DNA of 64,000 nt from Escherichia coli (GTDB lineage Bacteria > Pseudomonadota > Gammaproteobacteria > Enterobacterales > Enterobacteriaceae), in assembly GCF_048403405.1 (NCBI RefSeq), contig NZ_CP183129.1. One strand, given 5' to 3'. Numbering within the stretch: position 1 is the stretch's first letter; each line of letters starts with the position of its first letter. Below, one piece after another: positions 12,063 to 63,797 of the stretch. The translations under genes and the position numbers were made by a program. The notes beneath the pieces are model-generated. The model worked only from the letters and a program-made list of their open reading frames with translations. It did not search any database and had not been told where the DNA came from.

Positions 12063-13040
12063 ATGAAGCAGGATAAAAGACGCGGTCTGACCCGGATCGC
12101 ATTGGCGCTGGCACTGGCAGGTTATTGTGTGGCACCTGTGGCGCTGGCGGAAGAAAGCGCCTGGGTCGACAGCGGCGAAACCAATATTTTCCAGGGAACC
12201 ATTCCGTGGCTCTATTCGGAAGGGGGAAGCGCTACGACAGATGCCGACCATGTAACGTTGACTTCAGATCTAAAAGGCGCTCGCCCGACAGGTAGTGAAA
12301 CGGACAAGCGTCTTTACTCGGGTGATAAATTAACCGTAAGTTGGGAAATTGGTGATACCGAAGGCGACGTGGATCTTGGGGGATTGGGCGATAACGCAAA
12401 GACTATCGATACTATCCGCTGGATGAGCTACAAGGACGCTCAGGGTAACGATCCAAAAGAGCTGGTAACGAAGGTGACCAGTTACACCCTTACCGATGCC
12501 GACCGTGGTCGTTATATCGGTATTGAAATTACGCCAACCACGCAGACCGGTACGCCAAACGTCGGGAATGCGCTGCATCTTTATGACATTTCCACTGCCA
12601 GCGGCGGCGGAAGCGACAGCGACAACGTTGCGCCAGGGCCGGTGGTTAACCAGAACCTGAAAGTCGCCATCTTTGTTGATGGTACCAGTATCAACCTTAT
12701 CAACGGCAGCACGCCAATCGAACTTGGCAAAACCTACGTGGCCAAACTGTACTCGGATGAGAACAAAAACGGCAAGTTTGATGCGGGTACCGATGCTGAC
12801 GTTACCGCCAATTATGACTTCCGTTGGGTACTTTCTGGCAGCAGCCAGCAGCTCGGCACCTCGGGTGGTATCGTTAACTCAAGCTTCGATAATAACAATC
12901 TGGTCATCCCTGCGACCAACGAAGACGCCAGAACCAACCTTAACGGCCCTGCGCGCGATGGTAAAGAAGCTCTTACCATCCCGACCAACGGCGACGGGGT
13001 ACAGGGGTACAAACTTCACATTATTTACAAACACAAATAA
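12063..13040 (+). CDS. sinI: SinI-like secreted protein
   Basis: 325-aa ORF with signal peptide and strong RBS aaggagag; N-terminus resembles RatA N-terminus, C-terminal ~100 aa resemble SinH C-terminus (VIPATN...DG.QGY motif). Confidence 0.7.
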   Translation: MKQDKRRGLTRIALALALAGYCVAPVALAEESAWVDSGETNIFQGTIPWLYSEGGSATTDADHVTLTSDLKGARPTGSETDKRLYSGDKLTVSWEIGDTEGDVDLGGLGDNAKTIDTIRWMSYKDAQGNDPKELVTKVTSYTLTDADRGRYIGIEITPTTQTGTPNVGNALHLYDISTASGGGSDSDNVAPGPVVNQNLKVAIFVDGTSINLINGSTPIELGKTYVAKLYSDENKNGKFDAGTDADVTANYDFRWVLSGSSQQLGTSGGIVNSSFDNNNLVIPATNEDARTNLNGPARDGKEALTIPTNGDGVQGYKLHIIYKHK

Positions 13041-13051
13041 CGCGTACTCAG

Positions 13052-13116
13052 CAGCATTCCCGCAAGGGAATGCTGTTTCCGCATATTTTGCTTAATCCCG
13101 GATTAAGCAAAATATG
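13052..13116 (+). promoter_or_regulatory. hairpin plus 35-bp perfect palindrome between sinI and ratA
   Basis: cagcattccc-gcaa-gggaatgctg hairpin, then catattttgcttaatc-ccg-gattaagcaaaatatg perfect inverted repeat. Confidence 0.4.
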
Positions 13117-13160
13117 TTGATGCGACAAGCGTCCGTTTAACAACCGGTGGAGTTTCTGTC

Positions 13161-16100
13161 ATGTCCCTGACCCTGAATAAAATCCTTGTGTTATGCGCAT
13201 TGCTGATAAGCGCAATGCTGCCTGGGTGGTCATGGGCAGAATCTGCATGGCAAGACTCTTCAGATACGGTCGGCGAATTTAACGGTACCGTGCCCACCGC
13301 CGACAGTGCCAGCATACCCGTCTACCAGGGCAGTGTCTTTCTGGATCCTGCAAAGACGCATGAGGTAGCGTTTACCGCTAAACCGAGTGAATTCAGCGCG
13401 GATATTAGCGTCTCTAAATTGCTCGTCACCAATCCGCAAGACAGAGAAGGCGATATCATTTCCACCCCACGTTGGGAAAACCAAACGCCACCGACAGTAT
13501 CTTTAGTTTGGGCGGATGCCGCGACGCCGGACACCTTACTGGACCCACAGCCAGTCGCAGATCGCTCGTTTTGCGCTCAGGGACTTGCCGGGCGTTCGCT
13601 GGTCGCCTGGGCGCAGCCTGATCCCCAACAGACCATGCCGCTGTTATATTTACTCACCTCGACGGGCTATCCCTATGAAAGTGTTCTGACGCTCGCCGAT
13701 CAGAAAGTGACGCTGAAGATTGCGCCCGCGCAGGGTGACCTTATTTCCGTCAGCGCCGCGGGCTATGACGAATCCTCCGGTGCGGCGAAAACGACGGTTG
13801 GCGGCAGTATCACGTTAACGGTCACCACCAAAGATTGCGTCGGTAATGTTGTGGGGAATATTCCTTTTGTTATCAAACGCAAAGATGCTGAAAACCGCCA
13901 GGGTGTGGTGAACAATACTGCGCCGGTAAAACTGGGCACGACCGAATTAACCACCACCGCGACGGAATATCGTGGTACTACCGATGCGAATGGTGTTGCC
14001 ACGGTTACGGTCACCCAGGCCAACGGCCCTGGTGTAAAAACGCCGTTGGTCGCGAGCCTTGCGGGTATTGCTCAGGCCAGTGAAACGGCAGTGATCTTTA
14101 CCGTCCTCACCAGCCCGGATGTCCCGCAGGCTACAATGTGGGGTCATATGCCCGATACGCTGAAGGCCCGTGATTACACTTTTAGTCGACCAAAACTGGC
14201 GGCGGAAGTCGATAATGAAGACGGTACGGTTAACGATCACAATGAAACCTGGTCCACCTTTACCTGGAGCGGCGCGGATAAACATTGCGACATTTTGCCC
14301 GGAATGCGTCAGTTCGGTGCGCTGGCGACGGTGGTGCCAACGTCAGTGCAGGATGTGGCTGGTTGGCCGATGCAGGGTAATTTCTACTGGTCATCACTGG
14401 CGGGGATGAGTGGCCAGCACCATGCGGCGGATGTTTCGAACCGCAGCGAAGCGCAAAAACCGGACGATACGACGTTTATTGTGAGCTGTGTCGATAAAGA
14501 AGCGCCCGATGTTGAACCGAAGCTGGTACTGACGCCGGGCAGTTATGATTCGACGATAAAAGCGATGAAAGTAAAGGTGGGGGAAGAGGCTTCTTTACGC
14601 CTGACGATTACCGATAGCAAGAACAACGATCAGCCGCTGGCGTACTACTACTTTTCGCTGCATCTGGATGACGGCGTTAACCGTAAGAATCAAACTGACA
14701 CCGCGTGGCAGGCGAATCCGGTACAAATAGCGGGCGGCAGTAATGTCCATCAGGTTGACGCGCATACCTATGAAGGGATCACTGATGCTAACGGAGAGGC
14801 CTCTCTGACGCTGACCCAGCCAGGCGGTGTGGGGGTGAAAACTCACATCACCGCGAGAATGCGCAGCGATTTTACCGCCTCGGATGAGAAAGACGTTATT
14901 TTTACGGTGATCACCAGCCCTGATTCCGACAAAGCGCGGATGTGGGGACATATGTTGGGCATTATTGAAGCGAATAATATCTTTAAACGCCCACGGCTGG
15001 CGGATGAAACCGACAACGAACTGGGAGCAGTGCGGGAAAATAACGAAGACTGGGCGCTGTTTGATCAGAATAGCAGTATGCAGGCTGAGTGTGGTTTAGG
15101 TCATATTCCGAGCCAAAGCTCATTGCACAGTTTGTTTGCCGCACATCCAGCCAATGTCATCGGCACCGAATATGGCTGGCCAACGTTGCAAAAAGCGTAT
15201 CTTAGTGCGGTGGAAGAGACGTCGCACGCGTCGGTGAACCTGGCCACGGGCAACATCGACACCTATTCCGGCTTTAAGCAAAACTACCTTTCTTGTTCGG
15301 GCAATGAGATGGTCGCCCAGATTGCTGCGACCACCGATCATGATGTTTCCACAAGCAGCAGAGCGCAGGCTAAAGTGGGTGAAACGATTACCATGACGGT
15401 ACGCACCTTTAATGCCTTGAATAATGCGCCCGTGCCGTATACCGCGTTCACCATCACTAAAGATATGGGGAAAAATCGTCAGGGGCAGAGCACGGGTTTC
15501 GATGATCCAACCCGCGGCGCAATCGAGATGAATGGCACGCTCTACGGAACATCGCAACCGTCTTTAGTCTATGCAGGTACTACGGATGCGCAGGGTTTTG
15601 CTACTGTGGAAATTAAGCAACCGCAAGGTGTGGGCTTAGCGACGCCGCTGAATATTGCGCCTGTAAACTCCTATATTCCCAATACTGTTAATTACAATGT
15701 GATTTTCACTACGCTCACCAGTCCGGATGCGGTTGGCGCGCAGATGTGGGGGCATATGGATGAGACGATTACCGTCGATGCATTAACCTTTGCCCGACCC
15801 CGGCTGGCTGCGGAAGTGTCCAGCCCGGACGGCACATTAACGGAAAATAACGAAGTGTGGTCGCGCGTTAGCCAGGCCAACACTTCCAGCACCAGTAAAG
15901 GTGGCTGTGGTGCCAATATGCTCCCACGCCGTTCCCAGCTTAACGCGCTCTATGATGCTAACAGCGGTAACGCCGTTCAAACGGTACACGGTTGGCCAAC
16001 GCAGCGTCAGCCCTACTGGAGCAGTTCGCCCGCGGATCAGGTGCCGCATTACTACACCATAGCCCTCAACGATGGCGCGCGGACCGTTGGCGGTAGCACG

Positions 16101-19100
16101 GCGGTTTATGTCAGTTGCCTGACGACGGCTAACAATCCTGCCAGCAGCATTACGCTGGAAGTGGTGGACCCGGCGCAGTGGAACGCGGCAGCAAATGCGG
16201 CGAAGCTGAAAAAAGGCGAAACGCTACAGGTGAAGGTGACGGTAAAAGATGCTCAGGGCAATCCATTGGGTGATATGCCTTTTACGCTGAAGCGTGGCGA
16301 TGGTTATACCCGATCAAACGAAAAACACATTGCCGGTAGCGGTGATGCGCTGGTTGCGCCGGTTGTGATCAATAGTGGCCTGGCGGATGAAACTTCGCTC
16401 AATGATACCGCCGCAGCATACAGCGCGATGACCGGTAGCGATGGCACTAAAATTCTCACTATTACCCGCCCGGATACCCATGGCACAAAAACGTCGCTGA
16501 CCGCCGCGCTCTATTCAGACACAACGAAAAAAGCGACCCTCGATACCATTTTTACCGTTGTCACCAGCCCAGACAGCAATAAAGCGAAAATGTGGGGGCA
16601 TATGCCGGAAACGGTGACGGCTGCGGATGGAACGGTCTTTAAACGCCCATTATTGTTGAAAGAGTTATCCAGTACGTCGGGTCGAACAGCGATTGCAGAA
16701 GATAATGAGGACTGGGCGCAATTTACCCAAACTCAGGCGACAAGCACATCCTCTAATGGTTGTGGTAGTGAATATGTTCCCTCTCAGGCCGGGCTGGAGT
16801 CATTGTATGAAGCCAACCGCGGCAATGCGATGAAAACGGTTCAGGGCTGGCCCGTCGCCTCAAGTTACCTTACCAGCACGACAGGCAGCAGTAGTCTGGA
16901 ACAGCGTGACTTAAAGGCCGTCAATCTCAGTTCAGGCACCAGTTCGATAATTCCATCGGCCACAAAAGAACTGCTTACCTGCCAGACGACGCCGATCGTC
17001 AAGGCTAGCCAAATCGTTCTTGAGGCTGCGGACCCCACAAAATTTGACAGTACGAATAATGTTGTCAAAGCGAAAAAAGGGGAAGAAGTCGTGGTTCGCG
17101 TGACCACTAAAGATTCGCAGGGTAACCCGGTGGGAAATACCGCGTTTACGCTTAAACGTAACCTTAGCGTCAATCGGGCAAATGCGTCTACAACGGTGAC
17201 AGCAGGCGCGCTCATCGTGACGGATGCCTGGGGTAACACGCAGAGTAATTTTTCCTCAACAACAGCACTGATTTATGGCGTTACCGGCGCAGATGGTACG
17301 ACAACACTTGCACTGAAACAGGACAATACCACGGGTTTAAAAACCGAACTGACCGCCATGCTGGATACAGATAATAACGTAAAATCAATGCTTCCGGTGG
17401 TCTTTACGGTGATAACCAGCCCCGATACCCCTAAAGCAAAATTCTGGGGGCATATGGCCGAAACGATGACCGGTGCTGGCGGGCTTATTTATAAAAGACC
17501 GTTATTGCAAGATGAGCTTTCCGTTACAACCAGTCGAAGCTCTTTTCAGGAAGATGGAGAGAGCTGGTCACTGTTCTCGCCGGACCAGTCGAACAACACA
17601 TCTGTAAATGGTTGCGGTGCAGGATATGTCCCGGTTGAAAGTGAGCTGGAGTCACTGTATGCCGATGAAGGTTACGTGCCAATACATGACGTTACGGGAT
17701 GGCCTGTATCACGCGCCTATATCTCCAGTACGGTTGTTGCCTATTACACTCAAACATTTAATTTTAAAGCGGTTTCGTTAAAAACGGGTGATGGAACGGA
17801 GGTCATGTCAAGCAGTATAGGACTGCTAAGTTGTCGGGCTACCCCAGTGGCGGTGACCAGCCACATTATTGTTGAAGCGAACGATGCGACACAATTTGTC
17901 AAAGTTGACGAAACCCTCAGCGCACTAAAACGGAAAAAAGGTGACGACGCGGTGATTCGCGTGGTGACAAAAGATGCGCAGGGAAATGTCGTACCAAATG
18001 TTCCGTTTATTCTCAAACGTGAAGGATCGACAAATCGCCAGAATGTACAGTTGTCGAACAGAACTATCACTGTAATCAACGCTGCGGGAACGTCGGCAAG
18101 AGTGGATACTCCATCAATCTCCCTTTATGCGGTGACAGGTGCAGACGGGACAGCCACGTTTACGGTAAAGCAGGATGATTCTATAGGCCTGGTAACCAAT
18201 GTGTACGCTCAGGCCTATCAGTCGAGCCTGGAATCCAACAAATTACCCGTGATGTTTACCGTGATAACCAGCCCGGATACCCCCCTGGCAAGTTACTGGG
18301 GGCATATGGCGGAAACGTTCACTACGCGTTCTGGTACTGCCTTCAAACGCCCCTTACTCTCTGCTGAAAGATCGTCGGGCCAGTCGTTTATAGAAGACAA
18401 TGAAGAGTGGGCCGTGTTGAGATCGGCAACAAAGGGGGATATCGATAAAAGCGGGTGCGATGTACATTATCAACCACTGTTAAGCGAACTACAGGCATTG
18501 TACGACGAACACCCAAGTCGTGCGATAAAGACCGATCTGGGTATTCCGGTAAATAGCTACTGGTGGGCTTACGACATGGTGGCATATGCGGGTAACTGGT
18601 ACGATCAATATATTTATCTGTTAAATGGATCAAGTGGAAGAGCGTCTTCAACCACCTCGGCATTAATGCTGTGCCTGGTAAACCCTCATCCAGAGGCGGC
18701 TTCTATTGAAATGACCTCAACGGCGGAGGATGCAACGAAAACGGCCAGCAATGATGGCAGGCCCAGCGCAACAGCGAAGAAGGGAGAGGTTATCCCGATG
18801 ACTGTTACGGTGCGAGATAGCGCAGGCAATCCACTGCCAGGTGCCAGCTTTAACCTTAAACGAGGAACTGCGCTGAACCGCGCTAAAGCTGCGTACGATG
18901 CCTCTGCAGATGATCTTACCATCATACCTGTGGAACCTACTGGGGTAACGTCAATCTTGTATGGGGATGGGACGCAGGCTCTTCTGAAGACAGGGAGCGA
19001 TGGTAAAGCTACGTTTGAGGTCAGCCAGAATAGCAGTTATGGGCTGTCAACGCCGCTCAGCGCAGAACTCATGCGCGATACCTCGAAAAGCGTCACGCTG

Positions 19101-40702: not shown

Positions 40703-40779
40703 TGGCGTGGCATGCAGGATTCGAACCTGCGACCAACCGCTTAGAAGGCGGTTGCTCTGTCCAACTGAGCTAATGCCAC
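40703..40779 (-). tRNA. tRNA-Arg (anticodon UCU), phage-encoded, CCA end encoded
   Basis: Reverse complement GTGGCATTAGCTCAGTTGGACAGAGCAACCGCCTTCTAAGCGGTTGGTCGCAGGTTCGAATCCTGCATGCCACGCCA folds as cloverleaf; anticodon loop CTTCTAA; T-arm GGTTCGAATCC; close to E. coli argU. Confidence 0.85.
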
Positions 40780-56559: not shown

Positions 56560-57411
56560 ATGAAAAAAATAAATTTGTTTTTTGGCATAGTGCTTTCAAT
56601 AGTCTCTGTAAATCCTACAGCTGCCAGTTCATTGCAATGCAATAAGGATAACTTTGATGCATGCAAAACGTGCGAACAATTATCAAAGGCTATCGACTTA
56701 AAAGAACCTAATCGTGGCGATTACTATAGAGGGGCTTTATGGAATGGGCTTTACGCCTCTTATGTAATTAATTGCCCTGTGGTTGCAGAGAAGTTACTGA
56801 GCCATGGTGCTATACCATCATATGGCGGATATATGGGGTCTATGGGGGCGGTTCTGACAGGAAAATGGCCTCATAACAATGAATCAATAAATCTTTCATG
56901 GGCAGATTTGCTTATAAAACATGGATTTGATGTTAATAGGCATACGGGGAATTATAAATCAGCTACTGAAGTATGGGCTATAGATAAAAAACAGATTGAA
57001 TATAAGTCAGTTTTTGACAAGTTAATTCAATCCAGCGAAGTAAAACCACTCGATCCTTCAAGAAATTTAGAATGGTGTGCGTCTGAAGGGTATCGCTCAG
57101 TTGTCGTTTATTCCCTTAACTCATGTATAGAAAATGCTATAAAACGTTTGGATGACGGTGTTTCTTCAGCGTCTGATATTTCATCAGCAGCCGTAAATTC
57201 CTGTACTAGCGATGTAGAAAATTTCAATAAGCATTTGGCATGCAAAGCAGCTGTTAAAGAAAACTCTGATAAAGAGAGAAGCAACGTTTACCAGTTATTA
57301 ACCAGTGATAGTCAAATGAATAAAAATGTTATTGATATGCTGAAGGAAAGAAATATTGAAACGGTTCTTGAATTTAGAGCTGAAAATCGATCAGCGAAAA
57401 CTGCACAGTGA
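56560..57411 (+). CDS. secreted moron protein, low GC, possible ankyrin-like repeats
   Basis: 283-aa ORF with signal peptide MKKINLFFGIVLSIVSVNPTAAS; markedly AT-rich relative to flanking late genes; weak ankyrin-like segments (VAEKLLSHGA, ADLLIKHGFDVN). Confidence 0.55.
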   Translation: MKKINLFFGIVLSIVSVNPTAASSLQCNKDNFDACKTCEQLSKAIDLKEPNRGDYYRGALWNGLYASYVINCPVVAEKLLSHGAIPSYGGYMGSMGAVLTGKWPHNNESINLSWADLLIKHGFDVNRHTGNYKSATEVWAIDKKQIEYKSVFDKLIQSSEVKPLDPSRNLEWCASEGYRSVVVYSLNSCIENAIKRLDDGVSSASDISSAAVNSCTSDVENFNKHLACKAAVKENSDKERSNVYQLLTSDSQMNKNVIDMLKERNIETVLEFRAENRSAKTAQ

Positions 57412-57418
57412 TCAAACA

Positions 57419-57442
57419 GGCCGCTTTCGCGGCCTTGTTTTT
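57419..57442. terminator. terminator hairpin (ggccgctttcgcggcc + T-run), copy 1
   Basis: ggccgctttcgcggcc followed by ttgttttt; identical hairpin recurs at 60670. Confidence 0.7.
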
Positions 57443-57601
57443 AACGAATGCCACCGCCGCCAGGGCGGGAATCCGCAGAACGCCCACCGCAGCGGGAGCC
57501 GTCAGCGGCAGTATCGCTGTCGTGCTGACAACGACCGGCAAAGGCCTGAGTTGAAGCTACCAGAGACAACAAAACGAACAGTGCAGCAAATGCTTTTTTC
57601 A
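57441..57601 (-). CDS. small secreted peptide (hypothetical)
   Basis: 53-aa ORF MKKAFAALFVLLSLVASTQA... with signal peptide; short, weak RBS. Confidence 0.3.
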
Positions 57602-57673
57602 TTGTGAAATTTCCATCTATAAGCCACCTCAATGTGGCGTCAATGAGTGTAGCACTGACTTTTGTTTCGTCCA

Positions 57674-57697
57674 CAAAAAAGCCCGCAGCGCGGGCTT
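57674..57697 (-). terminator. rho-independent terminator after small membrane protein gene
   Basis: agcccgc-agc-gcgggct hairpin with A-run on + strand (U-tract on - strand). Confidence 0.6.
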
Positions 57698-57929
57698 ACT
57701 TTTCTTCAGGTTTGTTGTCTTCAGATTTCTTCTTGATGCTTGGTTTTTGTCTAAGACCGAAAATACCAGCCACTGCAACAACTGTACCGATCACTGTGCC
57801 AGCTAGAACTTCATGACCTGTTAAACCTAATAATGTTGCACAAGCTACTGTAAAAATAGTTGCACTCAGGCCAAACCACTGCCCACGTTTATCTCTATTA
57901 ATAGCCCCGTCAAGTGCCTTTTCCTCCAT
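57696..57929 (-). CDS. small two-TM membrane protein
   Basis: 77-aa ORF; hydrophobic segments WFGLSATIFTVACATLLGL and VIGTVVAVAGIFGL; Lys-rich C-terminus. Confidence 0.45.
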   Translation of the reverse strand: MEEKALDGAINRDKRGQWFGLSATIFTVACATLLGLTGHEVLAGTVIGTVVAVAGIFGLRQKPSIKKKSEDNKPEEK

Positions 57930-58169
57930 TTTCTGGCGGTGAGCAAACTCCTTCTCCGTCAGCTGGAAGATGCGTTCGGGGGCATCAGGTAAAATATCCT
58001 GATACCCGCGAAGCAGATAGGGGGAGGAAGCGGACCCTGAAACGCATGGTGAGCGACAACTATCTCCTGAATTTCAGGGCGATCAAGAACTCTTGTGAAG
58101 GCATCTGGGTGTTGAATGATCTCGTTACTTAGCCCTTCCTCAACTTCCTCGAACTCAGTTTCTTCGTTA

Positions 58170-58496
58170 TCACTTGGTTGCCCAATAGATTTTTGCATAT
58201 TTGTCGAAGGACATTCCTTTAGCTTCTGGTTTTCCTCTTGCATTTGAGTTTTTCCCTGTCACTATTGCCCATTTTCCGCCAGCAGGCGCTGCAATTTTTT
58301 TTCCGTTCTTTACTATATATTCAGCATAAACACGATTTTCTGACCGTCTGAGATCGTCTCCGACCATATTCATGTCTCTTGATATAACTTTGACGACAGA
58401 GTCTCGGTTTAAAGCCTTGGCATAGTTGGAGCCAGGAACGATACCCAAAGGGGTGCCAGACTCTATAGCCAGCTCCTTGACATATCTTCTGCTCAT
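58170..58496 (-). CDS. hypothetical protein (possible small DNA-binding protein)
   Basis: 108-aa ORF from ATG 58496 (MSRRYVKELAIESG...); a perfect TTACC-N5-GGTAA site lies 22 bp upstream. Confidence 0.4.
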   Translation of the reverse strand: MSRRYVKELAIESGTPLGIVPGSNYAKALNRDSVVKVISRDMNMVGDDLRRSENRVYAEYIVKNGKKIAAPAGGKWAIVTGKNSNARGKPEAKGMSFDKYAKIYWATK

Positions 58497-58517
58497 ATGA
58501 ACCTCAACCAATCGACT

Positions 58518-58532
58518 TTACCAATCGGGTAA
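58518..58532. promoter_or_regulatory. perfect TTACC-N5-GGTAA palindrome
   Basis: TTACCAATCGGGTAA upstream of the 58496 gene. Confidence 0.5.
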
Positions 58533-58617
58533 TTTTAAACATGAGTATAATGCTTTTAACTGCAACGAGTGTAAACAATTATTGATAATTGTAGGCACAT
58601 CCCTGTGCCGCCGCCCG

Positions 58618-59310
58618 TCAGAAGAACCCTGCTTTGTCGTTGATGTACTCCGCGTGCGTCTGGATATCACGCAGGCATTTGCTCACACCGACGATGTAGC
58701 AGAACATGGTGGTCAACTCCGCCGCCGCGCCCGATACGTCGTGCCCGTCTTCCTGTAACTGGTTTAGCAGATTCATCAGCAGTGAGTTCTCCGTCAGGCC
58801 GAGAACACCAGACGGCGAATGAATCAGGCTGCGGTAGCCGGGCTTCAGTGGGGCGCTGTAGGTTTTGTTCTCTACCTTCATTGCCTGCATCACTGCTGAT
58901 GCTGTGGCGTTGGCTACCTGGTCGGCAACCATCTTTATGCGTTCTTCCTGCGGGAGCGAGTTTTTAATGTAACTTCCGGTGCGGCGGATCTGAGGAAGAA
59001 CCTCACCTGTAACCCATTCAAGAAATCTGAATGCTCTCGTTCCCTCAGTCATTGCCTCTTTGCAACGCAGAATAAGGATGTAGAGACCTGATTCTGAAAC
59101 GATGGATAGTTCTTGTATTCCACCAGGGGTCTGTATTGAATACAGCCCCTTTTTGTTCCAGCCTTTTTTATCAAGTTTTCTCGCTTGTGTAACATCAATA
59201 TTCAAAGCATTGCACACATCTTTGGTGACAAACCAAGGTTCTCCGTCAATCATGAACATACGGATCTGGCAGGATGACTCAAAGGAAAAGATGGAAGGTT
59301 TGGTATTCAT
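58618..59310 (-). CDS. antirepressor, Bro-N domain plus C-terminal antirepressor domain
   Basis: N-terminus MNTKPSIFSFESSCQIRMFMIDGEPWFVTKDVCNALNI is a Bro-N/KilA-N-type signature; C-terminal domain has a paralog at 60693-60950. Confidence 0.7.
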   Translation of the reverse strand: MNTKPSIFSFESSCQIRMFMIDGEPWFVTKDVCNALNIDVTQARKLDKKGWNKKGLYSIQTPGGIQELSIVSESGLYILILRCKEAMTEGTRAFRFLEWVTGEVLPQIRRTGSYIKNSLPQEERIKMVADQVANATASAVMQAMKVENKTYSAPLKPGYRSLIHSPSGVLGLTENSLLMNLLNQLQEDGHDVSGAAAELTTMFCYIVGVSKCLRDIQTHAEYINDKAGFF

Positions 59311-59577
59311 AGCGATCACCTTTGTAGTTAGGTTAATCACCACCGCTGAGACCAATCAGATGGTGGTGAACTGTGCAGAGTTGGTCTTACCGGCTACAAA
59401 GGAACCCGGCGCACCTTTCGGTGCCCCCACACAGCCCACCATAGAATAGGTGCGCTTTACACATAAAAAAACCGCTTATGCGGCATATGTGCCTCTGTAG
59501 TAATCCGGGAGACCAATCCCGGCACTGGATTTTGCCAGTGCCCGATTACTATGGCACAAGAGGAGTGCAATGTAAAT

Positions 59578-59592
59578 TTACCGAAAAGGTAA
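59578..59592. promoter_or_regulatory. perfect TTACC-N5-GGTAA palindrome about 270 bp upstream of antirepressor
   Basis: TTACCGAAAAGGTAA. Confidence 0.5.
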
Positions 59593-59753
59593 TAATAAAT
59601 GCATAACTCACGTTATTTCAACCCTATATGGTTTGATTTATCCCATTTCAGAAAATACCTGCCTATTTTTTTGCCAGTATGCGTATACTTTCGATAGAAT
59701 GTTTACCCTAGAGGTAGTTGGGGGTGCCCGTGAACACGAAGAGAGCTACAGTA

Positions 59754-60173
59754 ATGCAGCATTTGAGGAAATCAGAAAAAAATAAAGACCATGAAATATT
59801 GAGTAAGGCCATTGTTCGGGCTTCCAATAATACTGTTATACCTCATGCTGAAGAGTCTGGACAGAAATTTCTTATTCGGTATTTCACTGAAAATAGTGCA
59901 GTTGAGGAGATTTTAAAACATCAGGGAGGGGAATTTAAATGTGGAAAACTGGCAGATTATGTTCGTCGTGAAACGTCTGAACAAGAAGTATATTATGCTG
60001 ATATTAATCATAAGTCAGGTGTGAAAATTGTAATAGGCTATTACACAACTCCCAAAAATGTTATGCATGAGGTCCCAAAGATGTCCGTCGAGAAATCTCA
60101 TGCAATCTCGCGCAGGATGTTTGCACGCACTGCCGAAGATATGGCTCAGGAGCTCTACGACGATGCTGAATAA
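59754..60173 (+). CDS. hypothetical protein, candidate partner of YafO-like toxin
   Basis: About 140 aa from ATG 59754; stop overlaps the start of the downstream gene (ATGCTGAATAA); low GC. Confidence 0.5.
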   Translation: MQHLRKSEKNKDHEILSKAIVRASNNTVIPHAEESGQKFLIRYFTENSAVEEILKHQGGEFKCGKLADYVRRETSEQEVYYADINHKSGVKIVIGYYTTPKNVMHEVPKMSVEKSHAISRRMFARTAEDMAQELYDDAE

Positions 60174-60668
60174 ATTCCAGGGGTTGGTTCACCCTGGAAT
60201 TTTTGGGAAGGACCCTGAGCTAATACCTATCAAAAACGCGTTCATAGATCACTGGCGCTACGGTCATCATAAGGATTTCGGAAAGGACACTCTGTTTCGG
60301 GATCCACCGAAAGAAATGCTGGAATATCACATACGCCACGTTCACGTAAACATCGGAAACTATACTGACAAGTTTGGTGAGAGCGGTACGGACAATGCTG
60401 GAAAAACTGGGCGTCTGGGAAGAAAGACAAGACCACTAACAAGCATAAAAAGATCCCAACCAGTGACGTGTATGTGATTTATCTGGTCACATCTGAACGC
60501 CATGCCTTCCTTCTGGATTATTGGGATGAACCAGCACATAAGACAGTAGAAATTGACGAGCAGAAGCAAAAATTAGTTGTCGAGTGTGACAGAATTTTGC
60601 GGCTGAAAAAGTTAGAATCCATGCCGCGCGATGCTAGTTTGTGGGACCCAGAATTTTACGACTGTTAA
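60163..60668 (+). pseudogene. YafO-like toxin gene interrupted by a frameshift (or sequencing error)
   Basis: N-terminal part in one frame (to 60477: ...FGKDTLFRDPPKEMLEYHIRHVHV) and C-terminal part in another (60381-60668: ...VYVIYLVTSERHAFLLDYWDEPAHK) both resemble E. coli YafO as I recall it; frames overlap 60381-60477. Confidence 0.45.
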
Positions 60669-60669
60669 T

Positions 60670-60694
60670 GGCCGCTTTCGCGGCCTTTAAATTT
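60670..60694. terminator. terminator hairpin (ggccgctttcgcggcc), copy 2
   Basis: Identical 16-bp hairpin to 57419-57434, followed by tttaaattt. Confidence 0.65.
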
Positions 60695-60950
60695 ACCGGG
60701 TTTGTTTTCGTAATTGTTCGGCACAATAGTCGAGATGTGTTTGCAGATCCCGCATAGACATCTGTGAGCTGGTGACGTAGTTAATCAGTGCAGTCAGTTC
60801 GGCAAGTGGGCCATCGACATTAAATCCATCCTTATCGAGATCCCGGAGTAATTTCATCAAGTGCGATCCCTCCACCAGTGACCTGACGCCTCCCGGCGTG
60901 TGAATCCTTTCGGTAAATCCGTCTTCCAGTGGATAGTGATACTGCTGCAT
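60693..60950 (-). CDS. free-standing antirepressor C-terminal-domain paralog
   Basis: About 85 aa from internal ATG (MQQYHYPLEDG...); shares L..LL..L..DG..V.G..AELT.....Y.......RD.QTH..Y pattern with the C-terminus of the 58618-59310 antirepressor. Confidence 0.5.
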   Translation of the reverse strand: MQQYHYPLEDGFTERIHTPGGVRSLVEGSHLMKLLRDLDKDGFNVDGPLAELTALINYVTSSQMSMRDLQTHLDYCAEQLRKQTR

Positions 60951-61026
60951 CTTATCTTCTCCATGCAATAACTGTATGTTTATACAGTAACAAATAATTT
61001 GTTTGCTATCCAGCACGTTTTGCAAA

Positions 61027-61041
61027 TTACCTGAAAGGTAA
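61027..61041. promoter_or_regulatory. perfect TTACC-N5-GGTAA palindrome between ant-C paralog and tailspike
   Basis: TTACCTGAAAGGTAA; ATGTGGTT motif at 61074-61081. Confidence 0.5.
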
Positions 61042-61145
61042 TATCTATTCGTATTTACAGCCTTTCTATCCATATGTGGTTTTTCAGGTAATAGAATAAC
61101 CAGATATGCGGCGCAACGGGTGCTGCGACTATCTGGAGATTTAAC

Positions 61146-63797
61146 ATGACGGTCTCAACCGAAGTTGACCACAACGAATACACTGGTAACGGAGCTACGA
61201 CATCATTTCCGTATACCTTCCGTATTTTCAAAAAATCCGACCTGGTTGTTCAGGTGTCTGACCTGAACGGGAACGTAACAGAATTGGTTCTGGATACTGA
61301 CTACACAGTAACCAATGCTGGAGGATATAATGGCGGTAATGTAATTCTGTCGAAGGCGTTGGCTAACGGTTATCATATTTCTATATCACGAGAGCTCCCG
61401 GTTACGCAGGATACTGATTTGCGTAATCAGGGTAAGTTCTTCGCTGAGGTACATGAAGACGCGTTCGATAAACTGACAATGCTTATTCAAAAGTGTTTTT
61501 CATGGATGAGGTTAGCACTTATAAAACCAAGCATTCTGGCTAACTATTATGATGCAAAAAATAATAAGATATCAAATCTAGCAAATGCCACTGACAGAAA
61601 CGATGCTGTCAATAAAGGTTATGTTGATGATCTTTTTACTGGAGGTGTAACGCCTACACCTAACAGCGTTAAAAACGATATTTTTACAAATCACCAAAGA
61701 AAGATTGTAGCTACGATGCCGCTTCTTTTTCCTGAATATGATGCGATTATGGCTGCTAACCCGTCAGCAACTTATATGTATCCTCAAGGATTCTGCGTTA
61801 GCGAAGATTTGATATACATCACTTATCCATTTGAGCCTAAACAGACGAATAATGTCGTCGCAGTATTTAACATATCTGGTATTTATCAAGGTTATTTCTA
61901 TGTTCAGGCTGGCGGCCCAGGCTTCGCTGCTGAAGGAATCGTGGTTACGTCAGACTATGGCCCCAAAAAAATGTTTGTTGGTCACACAAACGGAATACTG
62001 CGTGAATTTAATATGGAGGGGGCATTATACGGAAGCAATCTGCCTCTTGTACAAAACCATGATGTTGGATTATTCAACCAGTTCAGCTACAGAAGAGGTA
62101 TATGGCTCGTTGAGCAGAATGCGCCAGAAGTAGGACAGAAAATCACAAGAACTGTACTTGCAGTGTTCGACAGTGGTTTCAATCGCCTGTCAACTATAAC
62201 GCTGCCGTTACATGATGTTGGGTATGTAACTAAAAGCACCTCACCTTATGCGCCTTATTTCAACAAGCGTCAGGGTATTGCGGTAGGTGATAACTACTTT
62301 GTCTGCGGCTATGGCGGCTTCATAGCTGATGGGGCAGGAAGCGCAGGATATAACGAATATCAGGGCAGCAAAGTTTTTAACCCTGACGGTACAAAGCGAA
62401 CTGAATCAATGCTTCATCCTCAGGCCATGATGGATTTAATGAAAGCCGCAGGATTGAACGTCACTCGCATAGAAAATGAAGGCGTTTGTGTTTCTCAGGA
62501 TGGAAAATCCATTTATTCACTTTACATTCATCAGGAAAGAACTGGCTCTGAACCTTACAATTCAGGTTTGGTTATTTTCGAAGATTTCTCCACTGATAAA
62601 GATGCTATCGATTTTACACCTGCATCCAGGCTTTACCGCGGATTTGATATCGATCACGCGAGCATTGGGGTATATCCCCGTAGTGCGAAGGGGATTGTTA
62701 ACCCTGTAGATGGTACGTTGTTCACTAACATGACTGAAATTCTTCGCTATATGCAGGAGATGAGTCAGAAGGCATTTAATTTTTACACAGGGACTGTCAG
62801 CATTGCTGATATATCTGGCGTGGCAATCCCTTCCAGCACATATGTTGAAATACTGAATGCGAATAATCAGACTTTTATAGTCAACTATTATTCATCTGAT
62901 AGTGGTATTAGTTATTTGGTTGCAACTAATCCTTCTGGTGACTTTGTATTTGTGCGCCAGCGACCGGCACAGTGGGCATCTAACTTAACCATTCAGCAAA
63001 ACGCAGATCCTGATACAAACCAATTAAACCGCATCACTGCATCATCATATGCCGGTGCAACTACAAACTCTCAGAAAATATTGGTCCTTGACCAGCAGGC
63101 TACAGCTAGCGCAAATAGCTTGGTATTGGGCGGTAGTTCTTCTGTGTTTAGGTCTGCCACCACGGTGGATATTGCATGCAACAGCGACCCGACAGCATTG
63201 GGAGGAACCATACGCTGGCGGTTTTATGATACAGGTCTTCGCCCGTTTGCTGACAATACCTATAATTTTGGTCAGGCATCGTTTCGTATTAAAGACGCCT
63301 ACTTTGCAAATGCCCCAACCGTTTCATCAGATGCCACGCTGAAAACCAATCCCGAGGCAATATCAGATTTAAGTGAAATGCTTTCTTCTGATAGAGACAG
63401 CATTCTTGATGCCTGGGGCGATATTTCTGTTGTGGCGTATCGATGGCTCGACGCTATATCCATGAAGGGCGATGGTGCCAGATGGCATTTTGGCGTCATG
63501 GCTCAGCAGGTAAGGGATGTATTCTTGGCGCACGGAATTGATGGAACCAGATTTGGCCTTCTTTGCTATGACGAGTGGGATGATATTTTTGAGCCGGTAA
63601 TCGCGACTAAAGAGATTACCGATACGTCTGGTGAGTTGGTCACCGTCGAATATGACACCGGAGAACAGAGGCTGGTTAAAAAAGCGGGTAGTTCATGGGG
63701 TATACGGCCTGACCAGTGCGCTTGGCTTGAGGCTGCATATCAGCGCCGTCGATGCGATCGTATTGAAGAGCGACTCGAACTATTGGAATCAAAATAA
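61146..63797 (+). CDS. tailspike/tail fiber with N-terminal podovirus adaptor domain and C-terminal intramolecular chaperone (peptidase S74-like) domain
   Basis: 883-aa ORF; N-terminus resembles T7 gp17 N-terminal domain pattern; C-terminal ~130 aa resemble self-cleaving chaperone domains of endosialidase-type tailspikes. Confidence 0.8.
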   Translation: MTVSTEVDHNEYTGNGATTSFPYTFRIFKKSDLVVQVSDLNGNVTELVLDTDYTVTNAGGYNGGNVILSKALANGYHISISRELPVTQDTDLRNQGKFFAEVHEDAFDKLTMLIQKCFSWMRLALIKPSILANYYDAKNNKISNLANATDRNDAVNKGYVDDLFTGGVTPTPNSVKNDIFTNHQRKIVATMPLLFPEYDAIMAANPSATYMYPQGFCVSEDLIYITYPFEPKQTNNVVAVFNISGIYQGYFYVQAGGPGFAAEGIVVTSDYGPKKMFVGHTNGILREFNMEGALYGSNLPLVQNHDVGLFNQFSYRRGIWLVEQNAPEVGQKITRTVLAVFDSGFNRLSTITLPLHDVGYVTKSTSPYAPYFNKRQGIAVGDNYFVCGYGGFIADGAGSAGYNEYQGSKVFNPDGTKRTESMLHPQAMMDLMKAAGLNVTRIENEGVCVSQDGKSIYSLYIHQERTGSEPYNSGLVIFEDFSTDKDAIDFTPASRLYRGFDIDHASIGVYPRSAKGIVNPVDGTLFTNMTEILRYMQEMSQKAFNFYTGTVSIADISGVAIPSSTYVEILNANNQTFIVNYYSSDSGISYLVATNPSGDFVFVRQRPAQWASNLTIQQNADPDTNQLNRITASSYAGATTNSQKILVLDQQATASANSLVLGGSSSVFRSATTVDIACNSDPTALGGTIRWRFYDTGLRPFADNTYNFGQASFRIKDAYFANAPTVSSDATLKTNPEAISDLSEMLSSDRDSILDAWGDISVVAYRWLDAISMKGDGARWHFGVMAQQVRDVFLAHGIDGTRFGLLCYDEWDDIFEPVIATKEITDTSGELVTVEYDTGEQRLVKKAGSSWGIRPDQCAWLEAAYQRRRCDRIEERLELLESK

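Follow-up and report, generated by a model that had tools for sequence, protein, structure and literature searches.

A gene near the right end of the 64,000-nucleotide (nt) stretch of Escherichia coli chromosome analyzed here (contig NZ_CP183129.1 of assembly GCF_048403405.1; hereafter the window) encodes a genuine tailspike. The best overall explanation is that this protein is the homotrimeric, three-part, K2-capsule-specific spike of an epsilon15-like temperate podovirus—a reading to which we give a probability of about 65%. Its distal half, a module that no family annotation covers, is probably specific for the K2 capsule. Among the capsules of extraintestinal pathogenic E. coli, K2 is a common one (CFT073/sequence type (ST) 73, part of ST131) and adds to serum resistance. 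It is omitted from a 2025 list of K antigens for which phage depolymerases are known (PMC12488582), and no K2-specific phage receptor-binding protein (RBP) was found in the searchable literature.

Gene and domain layout

The 883-codon open reading frame (ORF) starting with ATG was confirmed as real from the list of ORFs, and its product matches PHROG tailspike and tail families with E values of 1e-218 and 1e-102. The sequence similarities of the spike are far beyond chance; a search against NCBIfam found nothing. An intact full-length gene with 99.5–99.9% identity, labeled "tail fiber domain-containing protein" in RefSeq, is present in 18 of 5426 complete E. coli genomes—the set used for all associations described below—and these 18 genomes are referred to as carriers. 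The original prediction had proposed a T7-gp17-like N terminus, a β-helical centre, and a self-cleaving chaperone at the C terminus. This is supported in part: two of the three claims, those for both ends, hold, whereas the centre is of a different kind. The domain boundaries are listed in Table 1; the motifs DISVVAYRWLD, WHFGVMAQQ, and LCYDEWDD lie at amino acids (aa) 759–769, 780–788, and 806–813, respectively.

Table 1. Features of the tailspike gene and its product (window coordinates)
Feature	Position	Strand	Remark
Tailspike gene	61146..63797	+	883 aa plus stop; 97.5 kDa precursor
Shine-Dalgarno sequence GGAG	61135..61138	+	7 nt 5′ of ATG; read directly from the sequence
Particle-binding anchor, aa 1–165	61146..61640	+	Dpo31 D1 and T7 gp17 profile matches, AlphaFold2, Foldseek
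Predicted five-bladed β-propeller, aa ~176–495	61671..62630	+	proposed receptor-binding, possibly catalytic head
Predicted small α/β domain, aa ~500–605	62643..62960	+	one helix and five-stranded sheet (DSSP of the model; predicted local distance difference test score, pLDDT, about 95)
Stalk, aa ~606–727	62961..63326	+	ends at predicted cleavage site; aligns to solved pre-cleavage stalks
Putative folding-sensor pair in stalk	D703 63252–63254; R714 63285–63287	+	alignment to K1F and T5
Predicted autocleavage site S727–S728	63324..63329	+	alignment to 3GW6 and T5 pb1 mechanism
Intramolecular chaperone/peptidase S74, aa 728–883, 17.7 kDa	63327..63794	+	Pfam and solved chaperones
Catalytic residues by alignment	S728 63327–63329; K733 63342–63344	+	match endoNF S911(A) and K916

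In five carriers (NZ_CP139846.1 and NZ_CP183084/89/97/105), the spike gene measures 2653 instead of 2652 nt, and the annotation of the Nord58 spike as two coding sequences likewise points to a 1-nt indel. The extra nucleotide may be a genuine frameshift or else an assembly error at a homopolymer, of which the gene has one (an A7 run).

Association with the K2 capsule

RBPs of Uetakevirus prophages usually follow the O serogroup of their host, and the spikes of epsilon15 and phiV10 are O-antigen specific (PMC10408124). For the spike described here, the O-antigen clusters between galF and gnd were read in three carriers and found to be of three kinds: O25 in strain 2/0, O16 in S1-KEN-05-A, and O4 in the canine strain P4. 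This argues against a single O specificity, and simple O-antigen specificity was rejected as a candidate on these grounds. In region 2 of its group 2 capsule locus, strain 2/0 bears a 3.8 kb gene for a TagF-like CDP-glycerol glycerophosphotransferase, with 100% identity to the gene of CFT073—a strain that makes the K2 capsule (PMC12488582). K2 itself is a teichoic-acid-like polymer of galactose and glycerol phosphate.

A concatenated query of the receptor module and a K2 gene segment was used to quantify this link. Of the 18 carriers, 16 contain the K2 segment, as compared to 140 of the 5426 genomes overall (2.6%), which corresponds to a Fisher p of 2e-24, or of 1e-16 after collapsing obvious duplicates. 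The two carriers without it, Nord58 and B19695, represent a single clone. In their region 2, a different TagF-family transferase—whose gene is found in 133 genomes—is encoded together with a bifunctional cytidylyltransferase/SDR protein, and we take this locus to specify a ribitol-phosphate-type capsule. As read from their capsule genes, all 18 carriers would thus bear polyol-phosphate capsules.

Two controls locate this link within the protein. A sister of the receptor module, P0009, resides on a Mu-like prophage and was found at 63 places in about 60 carriers of its own, with the K2 segment missing in three only. The same anchor combined with other receptor modules, on the other side, occurs in K2 genomes in 2 of 475 cases. 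Hence, the K2 link belongs to the receptor module and not to the prophage family. The spike most likely recognizes the K2 capsule, a conclusion drawn from genomic co-occurrence, which fits a head that is kin to teichoic-acid-binding RBPs and a capsule that is itself teichoic-acid-like.

Both carriers with the ribitol-phosphate-type locus also bear a chromosomal ISEcp1-blaCTX-M-15 insertion beside gspL/yghD (loci L013 14553–16947 and L014 2993–5386), a few kb from kpsM/T.

The central propeller head

The central region is a real protein family: a homologue search with aa 161–665 against 1.84 billion representative proteins yielded 281 clusters (50% identity) at E ≤ 1e-3, and no Pfam or NCBIfam model matches the module. 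The AlphaFold2 model of the centre, calculated from an alignment of 108 homologues, shows a pLDDT of 90 and a predicted template modelling (TM) score of 0.86. It is a confidently predicted five-bladed β-propeller with about 20 short strands between aa 184 and 480, followed by one helix and five strands at aa 500–605. Its structural neighbours are five-bladed, nonsialidase propellers—phi11 Gp45, glutaminyl cyclase, and glycoside hydrolase family (GH) 43—and the nearest solved fold relatives are the Staphylococcus phage RBPs of phi11 (Gp45, 5EFV), 80alpha, P68, and NF5. Gp45-type relatives bind wall teichoic acid, and a "tower" domain has been described for them (PMC4901313). The Foldseek alignments to the RBPs of phi11, 80alpha, and P68 continue through aa ~500–605, and the small domain found there may tentatively be likened to this tower.

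On the sequence level, a profile of the propeller family (A3) matches nothing among the PDB sequences at E ≤ 0.01, Gp45 included. In its predicted structure the head thus resembles Gp45, whereas membership in the same sequence family is unsupported by the profile search. By tblastn, homologues of the propeller with 23–32% identity turned up among the tail proteins encoded by phages of Staphylococcus, Mammaliicoccus, and Weissella.

The most conserved polar residues among the 108 homologues are Q214, E263, R335, K374, Q376, E443, E445, and D489. As read from the DSSP string and the alignment, five of these near-invariant positions (Q214, E263, R335, K374/Q376, and E443/E445) begin the innermost—i.e., the first—strand of successive blades. 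This is where propellers line their axial cavity, and the conserved polar residues are predicted to do the same in the head of the spike.

Anchor, stalk, and chaperone

The anchor is made up of a β-sandwich (aa 9–82), a trimerizing helix (aa 100–125), and a conserved "NKISNLAN..DAVNKGYVD" motif (aa 134–161). Its closest solved homologue is domain D1 of Dpo31 from Carin-1 (E of 2e-26 for the single sequence and of 4e-42 for the profile), a β-sandwich that cryogenic electron microscopy places at the virion base (PMC13317679). The profile behind the latter value (A4), built from 15 diverse N termini, also matches PhiM1 gp47 (3e-21), several other podovirus fibre anchors, and T7 gp17 (7BOZ; E of 1.6e-4 over gp17 residues 10–152), and hhalign against Pfam-verified T7-type N termini gives a probability of 91% over 128 columns. 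In the Pfam search itself, the T7 gp17 N-terminal family PF03906 scores 21.6 bits—with a gathering threshold of 25.2—over aa 134–161 only, so that the domain is not filed under this family. For the AlphaFold2 model of the anchor, with a core pLDDT of about 85, Foldseek returns 8CK1_B of Carin-1 (TM score 0.86, 42% identity), T7 gp17 (7EY9_a; E of 1.4e-5, TM score 0.61), LME-1, PhiM1, Kp9/Kp7, and others—all of them structures resolved on virion tails. By homology and predicted fold, the anchor appears to be a particle-binding domain and a remote relative of the T7 gp17 N terminus. The proposed T7-like N terminus thereby stands in substance, in profile and fold searches although below the Pfam cut-off, and extends over ~165 rather than ~110 aa. 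On the DNA level, the anchor matches epsilon15, TL-2011b, and PAS61 with 80–85% identity, and this over nt 1–350 only. It is present in 493 of the 5426 genomes, and the receptor module described here in 18 only.

At the opposite end, Pfam recognizes Peptidase_S74 (PF13884) at aa 728–797 with 47.1 bits against a cut-off of 22 (E of 2.9e-12). Solved stalks and chaperones agree with this: the K1F endosialidase endoNF (3GW6) matches aa 665–883 with an E value of 3.9e-39, followed by phi29 gp12 (3GUD; 1.3e-19) and T5 pb1 (4UW8; 3e-11). The stalk aligns to endoNF from aa 665, to the E1004 tailspike (9VVR) from aa 637, and to other chaperone-bearing fibres. Its confidence in the monomer model is low (pLDDT 50–80), as expected for an interdigitated trimer.

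The mechanism of autocleavage was proposed for K1F and transposed to T5 (PMC4690869). It involves an Asp, an Arg of the neighbouring chain that senses the folding of the triple-β-helix, a pre-scissile residue, a nucleophilic Ser, and a Lys—in T5 pb1 D1239, R1250, T1263, S1264, and K1269, with cleavage between Thr1263 and Ser1264 (PMC4690869). When the spike is aligned to 3GW6, S728 falls on the S911A position and S727 on Thr910, and D703, R714, S728, D729, and K733 are invariant in nine homologues. The spacing is that of T5, with R714 at −14, D703 at −25, and K733 five residues after S728; position −1 is a Ser (S727) and a Thr in K1F and T5. As all mechanism residues align with K1F and share the spacing of T5, we predict cleavage at S727–S728 into a mature spike of 79.9 kDa and a fragment of 17.7 kDa, by analogy with K1F, T5, phi29, and Dpo31—whose homologous domain D4 was observed as an 18 kDa band (PMC13317679). 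The S74 chaperone of the original prediction is present with its mechanism residues and comprises 156 aa (728–883) instead of ~130.

Proposed working of the spike

In the proposed working, the anchor would dock the spike on the phage tail by its β-sandwich and coiled coil, as Dpo31 and T7 gp17 do, and the axial cavity of the head (aa ~176–605), with its eight conserved polar residues, might bind K2. The stalk would fold as an interdigitated trimer only together with the chaperone. R714 of a neighbouring chain would then be positioned between D703 and residue 727, upon which the S728/K733 dyad might cut the S727–S728 bond, free the small fragment, and leave the mature spike behind.

The head might in addition cleave the K2 polymer, at a glycosidic or a phosphodiester bond. 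We lean slightly toward such an activity, because a phage with a short tail has to get through the capsule before it reaches the outer membrane, and because acidic and basic cavity residues are conserved across hosts. Taking this further, the propeller might be the founding member of a "teichoicase-like" class of five-bladed depolymerases, whose E/E/D and K/R cavity cleaves polyol-phosphate polymers. Such a module would be ancient—at home in Gram-positive phages with wall teichoic acid as their target, and then horizontally transferred to E. coli phages facing K2 and perhaps ribitol-phosphate types—and the spike would be the first K2-specific phage enzyme to be identified. This proposal is speculative, and we consider it rather doubtful at present.

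Alternative readings

For the head, a right-handed parallel β-helical depolymerase like the spikes of P22, epsilon15, and Dpo31 was the expectation for the ~600-aa centre. No other fold is as common among tailspikes, the record of the related epsilon15 bears the annotation "right-handed parallel beta-helix repeat-containing protein", and Dpo31—with both end domains in common with the spike—has a β-helical centre. However, the AlphaFold2 model is a propeller, the fold searches gave no β-helix matches, and no β-helix Pfam family was found, so that this reading is already refuted at the level of structure prediction and retains hardly any credibility. Database names of relatives would turn the head into an enzyme instead, either a K1-specific endosialidase (GH58) or a glycerophosphodiester phosphodiesterase (GDPD), and both readings appear very improbable to us. 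The name "endo-N-acetylneuraminidase" is explained by the shared chaperone alone and was inherited: similarity to endoNF is limited to the stalk and chaperone at aa 665–883, the sialidase catalytic domain was not found, and the carriers hold K2 genes and not K1 genes. The PHROG label "glycerophosphoryl diester phosphodiesterase", stemming from Gram-positive phage tail homologues, is likewise an inherited name without Pfam support, as PF03009 was not found in the spike by Pfam search and as the Staphylococcus phage protein bearing this label has no Pfam domain at E ≤ 1e-3. If the propeller itself had phosphodiesterase activity, this would constitute a new class of enzymes and not GDPD.

For the receptor, the spike might recognize the O antigen or another noncapsular structure, with the K2 co-occurrence arising from shared ancestry or ecology of the lysogens. 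This would be in line with the O-antigen specificity of the characterized Uetakevirus spikes of epsilon15 and phiV10 and with the usual tracking of serogroups by such RBPs (PMC10408124); moreover, O25, O16, and O4 all use rhamnose (rfbBDAC present), which makes a shared epitope possible, and several carriers appear clonally related. On the contrary, the carriers have three different O clusters, and RBPs found across several serogroups are treated as likely non-O-antigen binders (PMC10408124). The rare occurrence of the same anchor with other receptor modules in K2 strains shows backbone or lineage alone to be insufficient, and the independent sister module on the Mu-like prophage is equally K2-restricted. 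We therefore regard a noncapsular receptor as unlikely. With K2 as the receptor, the head might still be a purely lectin-like, nonenzymatic adhesin on the model of the phi11 Gp45 platform, and the capsule would then be crossed by reversible binding and diffusion. The closest structural relatives, i.e., the RBPs of phi11, 80alpha, P68, and NF5, are described as binders only, and no known catalytic family matches. The same conserved charges and short tail that favour cleavage speak against pure binding, which we deem possible but not probable.

A number of points weigh against the K2-specific spike as proposed above. The K2 link rests on co-occurrence and not on experiment, the clone of Nord58 and B19695 lacks the K2 segment, and the genome of the window itself lies outside the set of 5426, so that the K2 counts concern the genomes of its relatives. 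Many carriers are related, several of them apparently belonging to ST131, which lets the p-values overstate independence; clearly distinct backgrounds are established for three only (O25, O16, and O4). On the structural side, cavity residues and blade assignment derive from a secondary-structure string and not from coordinates, and the head model is a monomer that does not reflect the trimer geometry. For the Gp45 family, no enzymatic activity has been demonstrated, so the head may only bind, and the family profile matches no solved structure by sequence, which leaves no active site to be transferred.

Comparison with known systems

Among the known systems, endoNF of K1F comes close to the spike in its overall build: both combine an exchangeable anchor, a β-propeller head, a trimeric stalk, and an autocleaved S74 chaperone—with the cleavage being predicted for the spike. 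Stalk and chaperone are homologous, with the D, R, T/S, S, and K of the mechanism aligned, and both proteins belong to capsule-associated E. coli phages. However, the endoNF head is a six-bladed sialidase propeller, whereas that of the spike groups with five-bladed ones and has no PDB sequence match to the sialidase catalytic domain. The capsules differ as well, being the polysialic acid of K1 on the one side and, by association, the glycerol-phosphate polymer K2 on the other. The RBPs of phi11 (Gp45), 80alpha, P68, and NF5 share the predicted five-bladed propeller fold, with Gp45 as the most similar. On the contrary, their stem is a coiled coil without an S74 chaperone, they are mounted on the baseplates of siphoviruses or the tails of podoviruses that infect Gram-positive hosts, and a relation to Gp45 is undetectable by sequence.

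The Uetakevirus members epsilon15, phiV10, and TL-2011b share the prophage type and the gene order with the phage of the spike, as well as anchor DNA of 80–85% identity over the first ~340 nt. Their receptor modules are O-antigen specific (with epsilon15 annotated as β-helical), while that of the spike does not track the O type. Dpo31 of the marine podovirus Carin-1 (28LX/8CK1) has a homologous anchor and an S74-type D4 that yields an 18 kDa fragment (PMC13317679). Its centre, however, is a 17-turn β-helix with an Ig-like insertion and not a propeller. Likewise, phi29 gp12 (3GUD) is a podovirus spike with a homologous autocleaved chaperone, but bears a β-helical head and no homology outside the chaperone; it acts on glycerol-phosphate teichoic acid.

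Exchange of the receptor module

Head, stalk, and chaperone—from about aa 176 onward—recur behind other N termini. These comprise a P22 head-binding domain (P0003, 84% identity), a T7-type N terminus with Tail_spike_N in Kayfunavirus genomes (P0006/EcoIv39_Milel, 72%), and Tail_spike_N alone in Rahnella (P0007), and the module is also encoded downstream of Mu-type baseplate genes (P0009, 50%). A further clade, ~38% identical, comes from several lytic coliphages and Salmonella phages whose genomes measure 39 to 75 kb. As judged from these sequences, the propeller module is exchanged among epsilon15-, P22-, T7-, and Mu-type phages. Host or receptor data for the lytic phages with ~38% or 72% relatives (EcoIv39_Milel, U8, ZCEC08, and others) were not found in the literature, and the BASEL paper was uninformative for the propeller module. 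The ~38% clade (vB_EcoP-U8) has no copies among the complete E. coli genomes.

An example of the P0009 type is the 791-aa tail fibre of a Mu-like myovirus prophage in E. coli GCA_032431415.1 (locus L015, 3001–5376), which bears propeller, stalk, and S74 chaperone at 50% identity to the spike. Fibres of this type share genomes with the spike in several cases (Ecol_AZ146, P4/FP4, 98889, and A1.S1.18) and are interrupted by ISEc52 in four genomes.

If the reading as a K2-specific spike is true, a K2-recognizing—and possibly K2-degrading—protein could be used for capsule typing, as an antivirulence enzyme, or for retargeting therapeutic phages and tailocins. It would also be a case of a Uetakevirus spike tracking the K antigen in place of the O antigen, and kin of the teichoic-acid binders of Gram-positive phages would occur just where E. 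coli makes a teichoic-acid-like polymer. By the predicted fold, the "default" assumption of a β-helix for tailspikes fails for a sizeable unannotated family, that of the 281 clusters.

Prophage context and further observations

The window is E. coli chromosome, and its closest annotated relatives carry a prophage of ~40 kb between guaA and yfgI. The gene order in these relatives starts with integrase, RecT/YqaJ, replication P, terminase, portal, and major capsid. It continues with a Bbp16-type cement protein, a gp10 "capsid staple", a T7-gp14-like core protein, and large ejection proteins, and ends with a variable accessory region, the spike, two holins, a GH19 endolysin, and a spanin-like gene. 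By alignment, the integrase of the window lies at about 26.1–27.4 kb, and the prophage extends past the right end of the window. With isolated phages (epsilon15, TL-2011b, PAS61, Tyrion, and others), the spike gene shares DNA similarity in its first 150–350 nt only. From the gene order of the prophage and this limited similarity, the gene is the single spike—i.e., the only RBP—of an epsilon15/phiV10-like podovirus prophage, and its distal part is foreign.

The accessory ("moron") region at 56600–61100, which spans from the virion genes to the spike, varies between otherwise similar prophages, as seen for the window and the loci L001 and L002. The version in the window recurs in 27 noncarrier genomes, where it is annotated with BRO-N/Ant, DUF2335, and a YafO-family toxin. 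These have a different spike, which shows recombination just upstream of the spike gene; the prophage of the window is a further mosaic in that it shares its accessory region with 27 genomes bearing other spikes. Directly upstream of the spike and divergent from it lies a 126-aa ORF (60693–61073, minus strand), which, unlike the remaining accessory region, accompanies the spike in relatives. Its C-terminal domain is shared with an Ant/BRO-N-like ORF of 245 aa (58618–59355, minus strand) at 42% identity over 84 aa (E of 3e-16). A GC-rich perfect hairpin (60670–60685, plus strand; GGCCGC-TTTC-GCGGCC) that is followed by a T-rich tract, TTTAAATTTA, is located directly 3′ of a 66-aa ORF (60468..60668) and is likely an intrinsic terminator separating the accessory genes from the spike region. 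In a scan for promoters and terminators around the spike gene, sites were no more numerous than in shuffled sequence.

A tRNA-Arg gene (anticodon TCT; 40703–40779, minus strand) lies within the prophage just upstream of a small ORF and the portal gene, and is likewise annotated in related prophages. The chromosomal flank is only about 95.4–95.9% identical to that of the B2 strain 2/0. Within it, a 5 kb stretch (12492–17470) of 74% identity falls inside an 8 kb gene for an "adhesion domain-containing protein" beside sinH, which looks like a highly variable giant adhesin. Beside the prophage integrase of a relative, a DGQHR-domain protein and an MT-A70 family methyltransferase are encoded (locus L017, 15341–17052, corresponding to ~27.5–28.2 kb of the window), and these may form a prophage-borne DNA-modification or defence pair.

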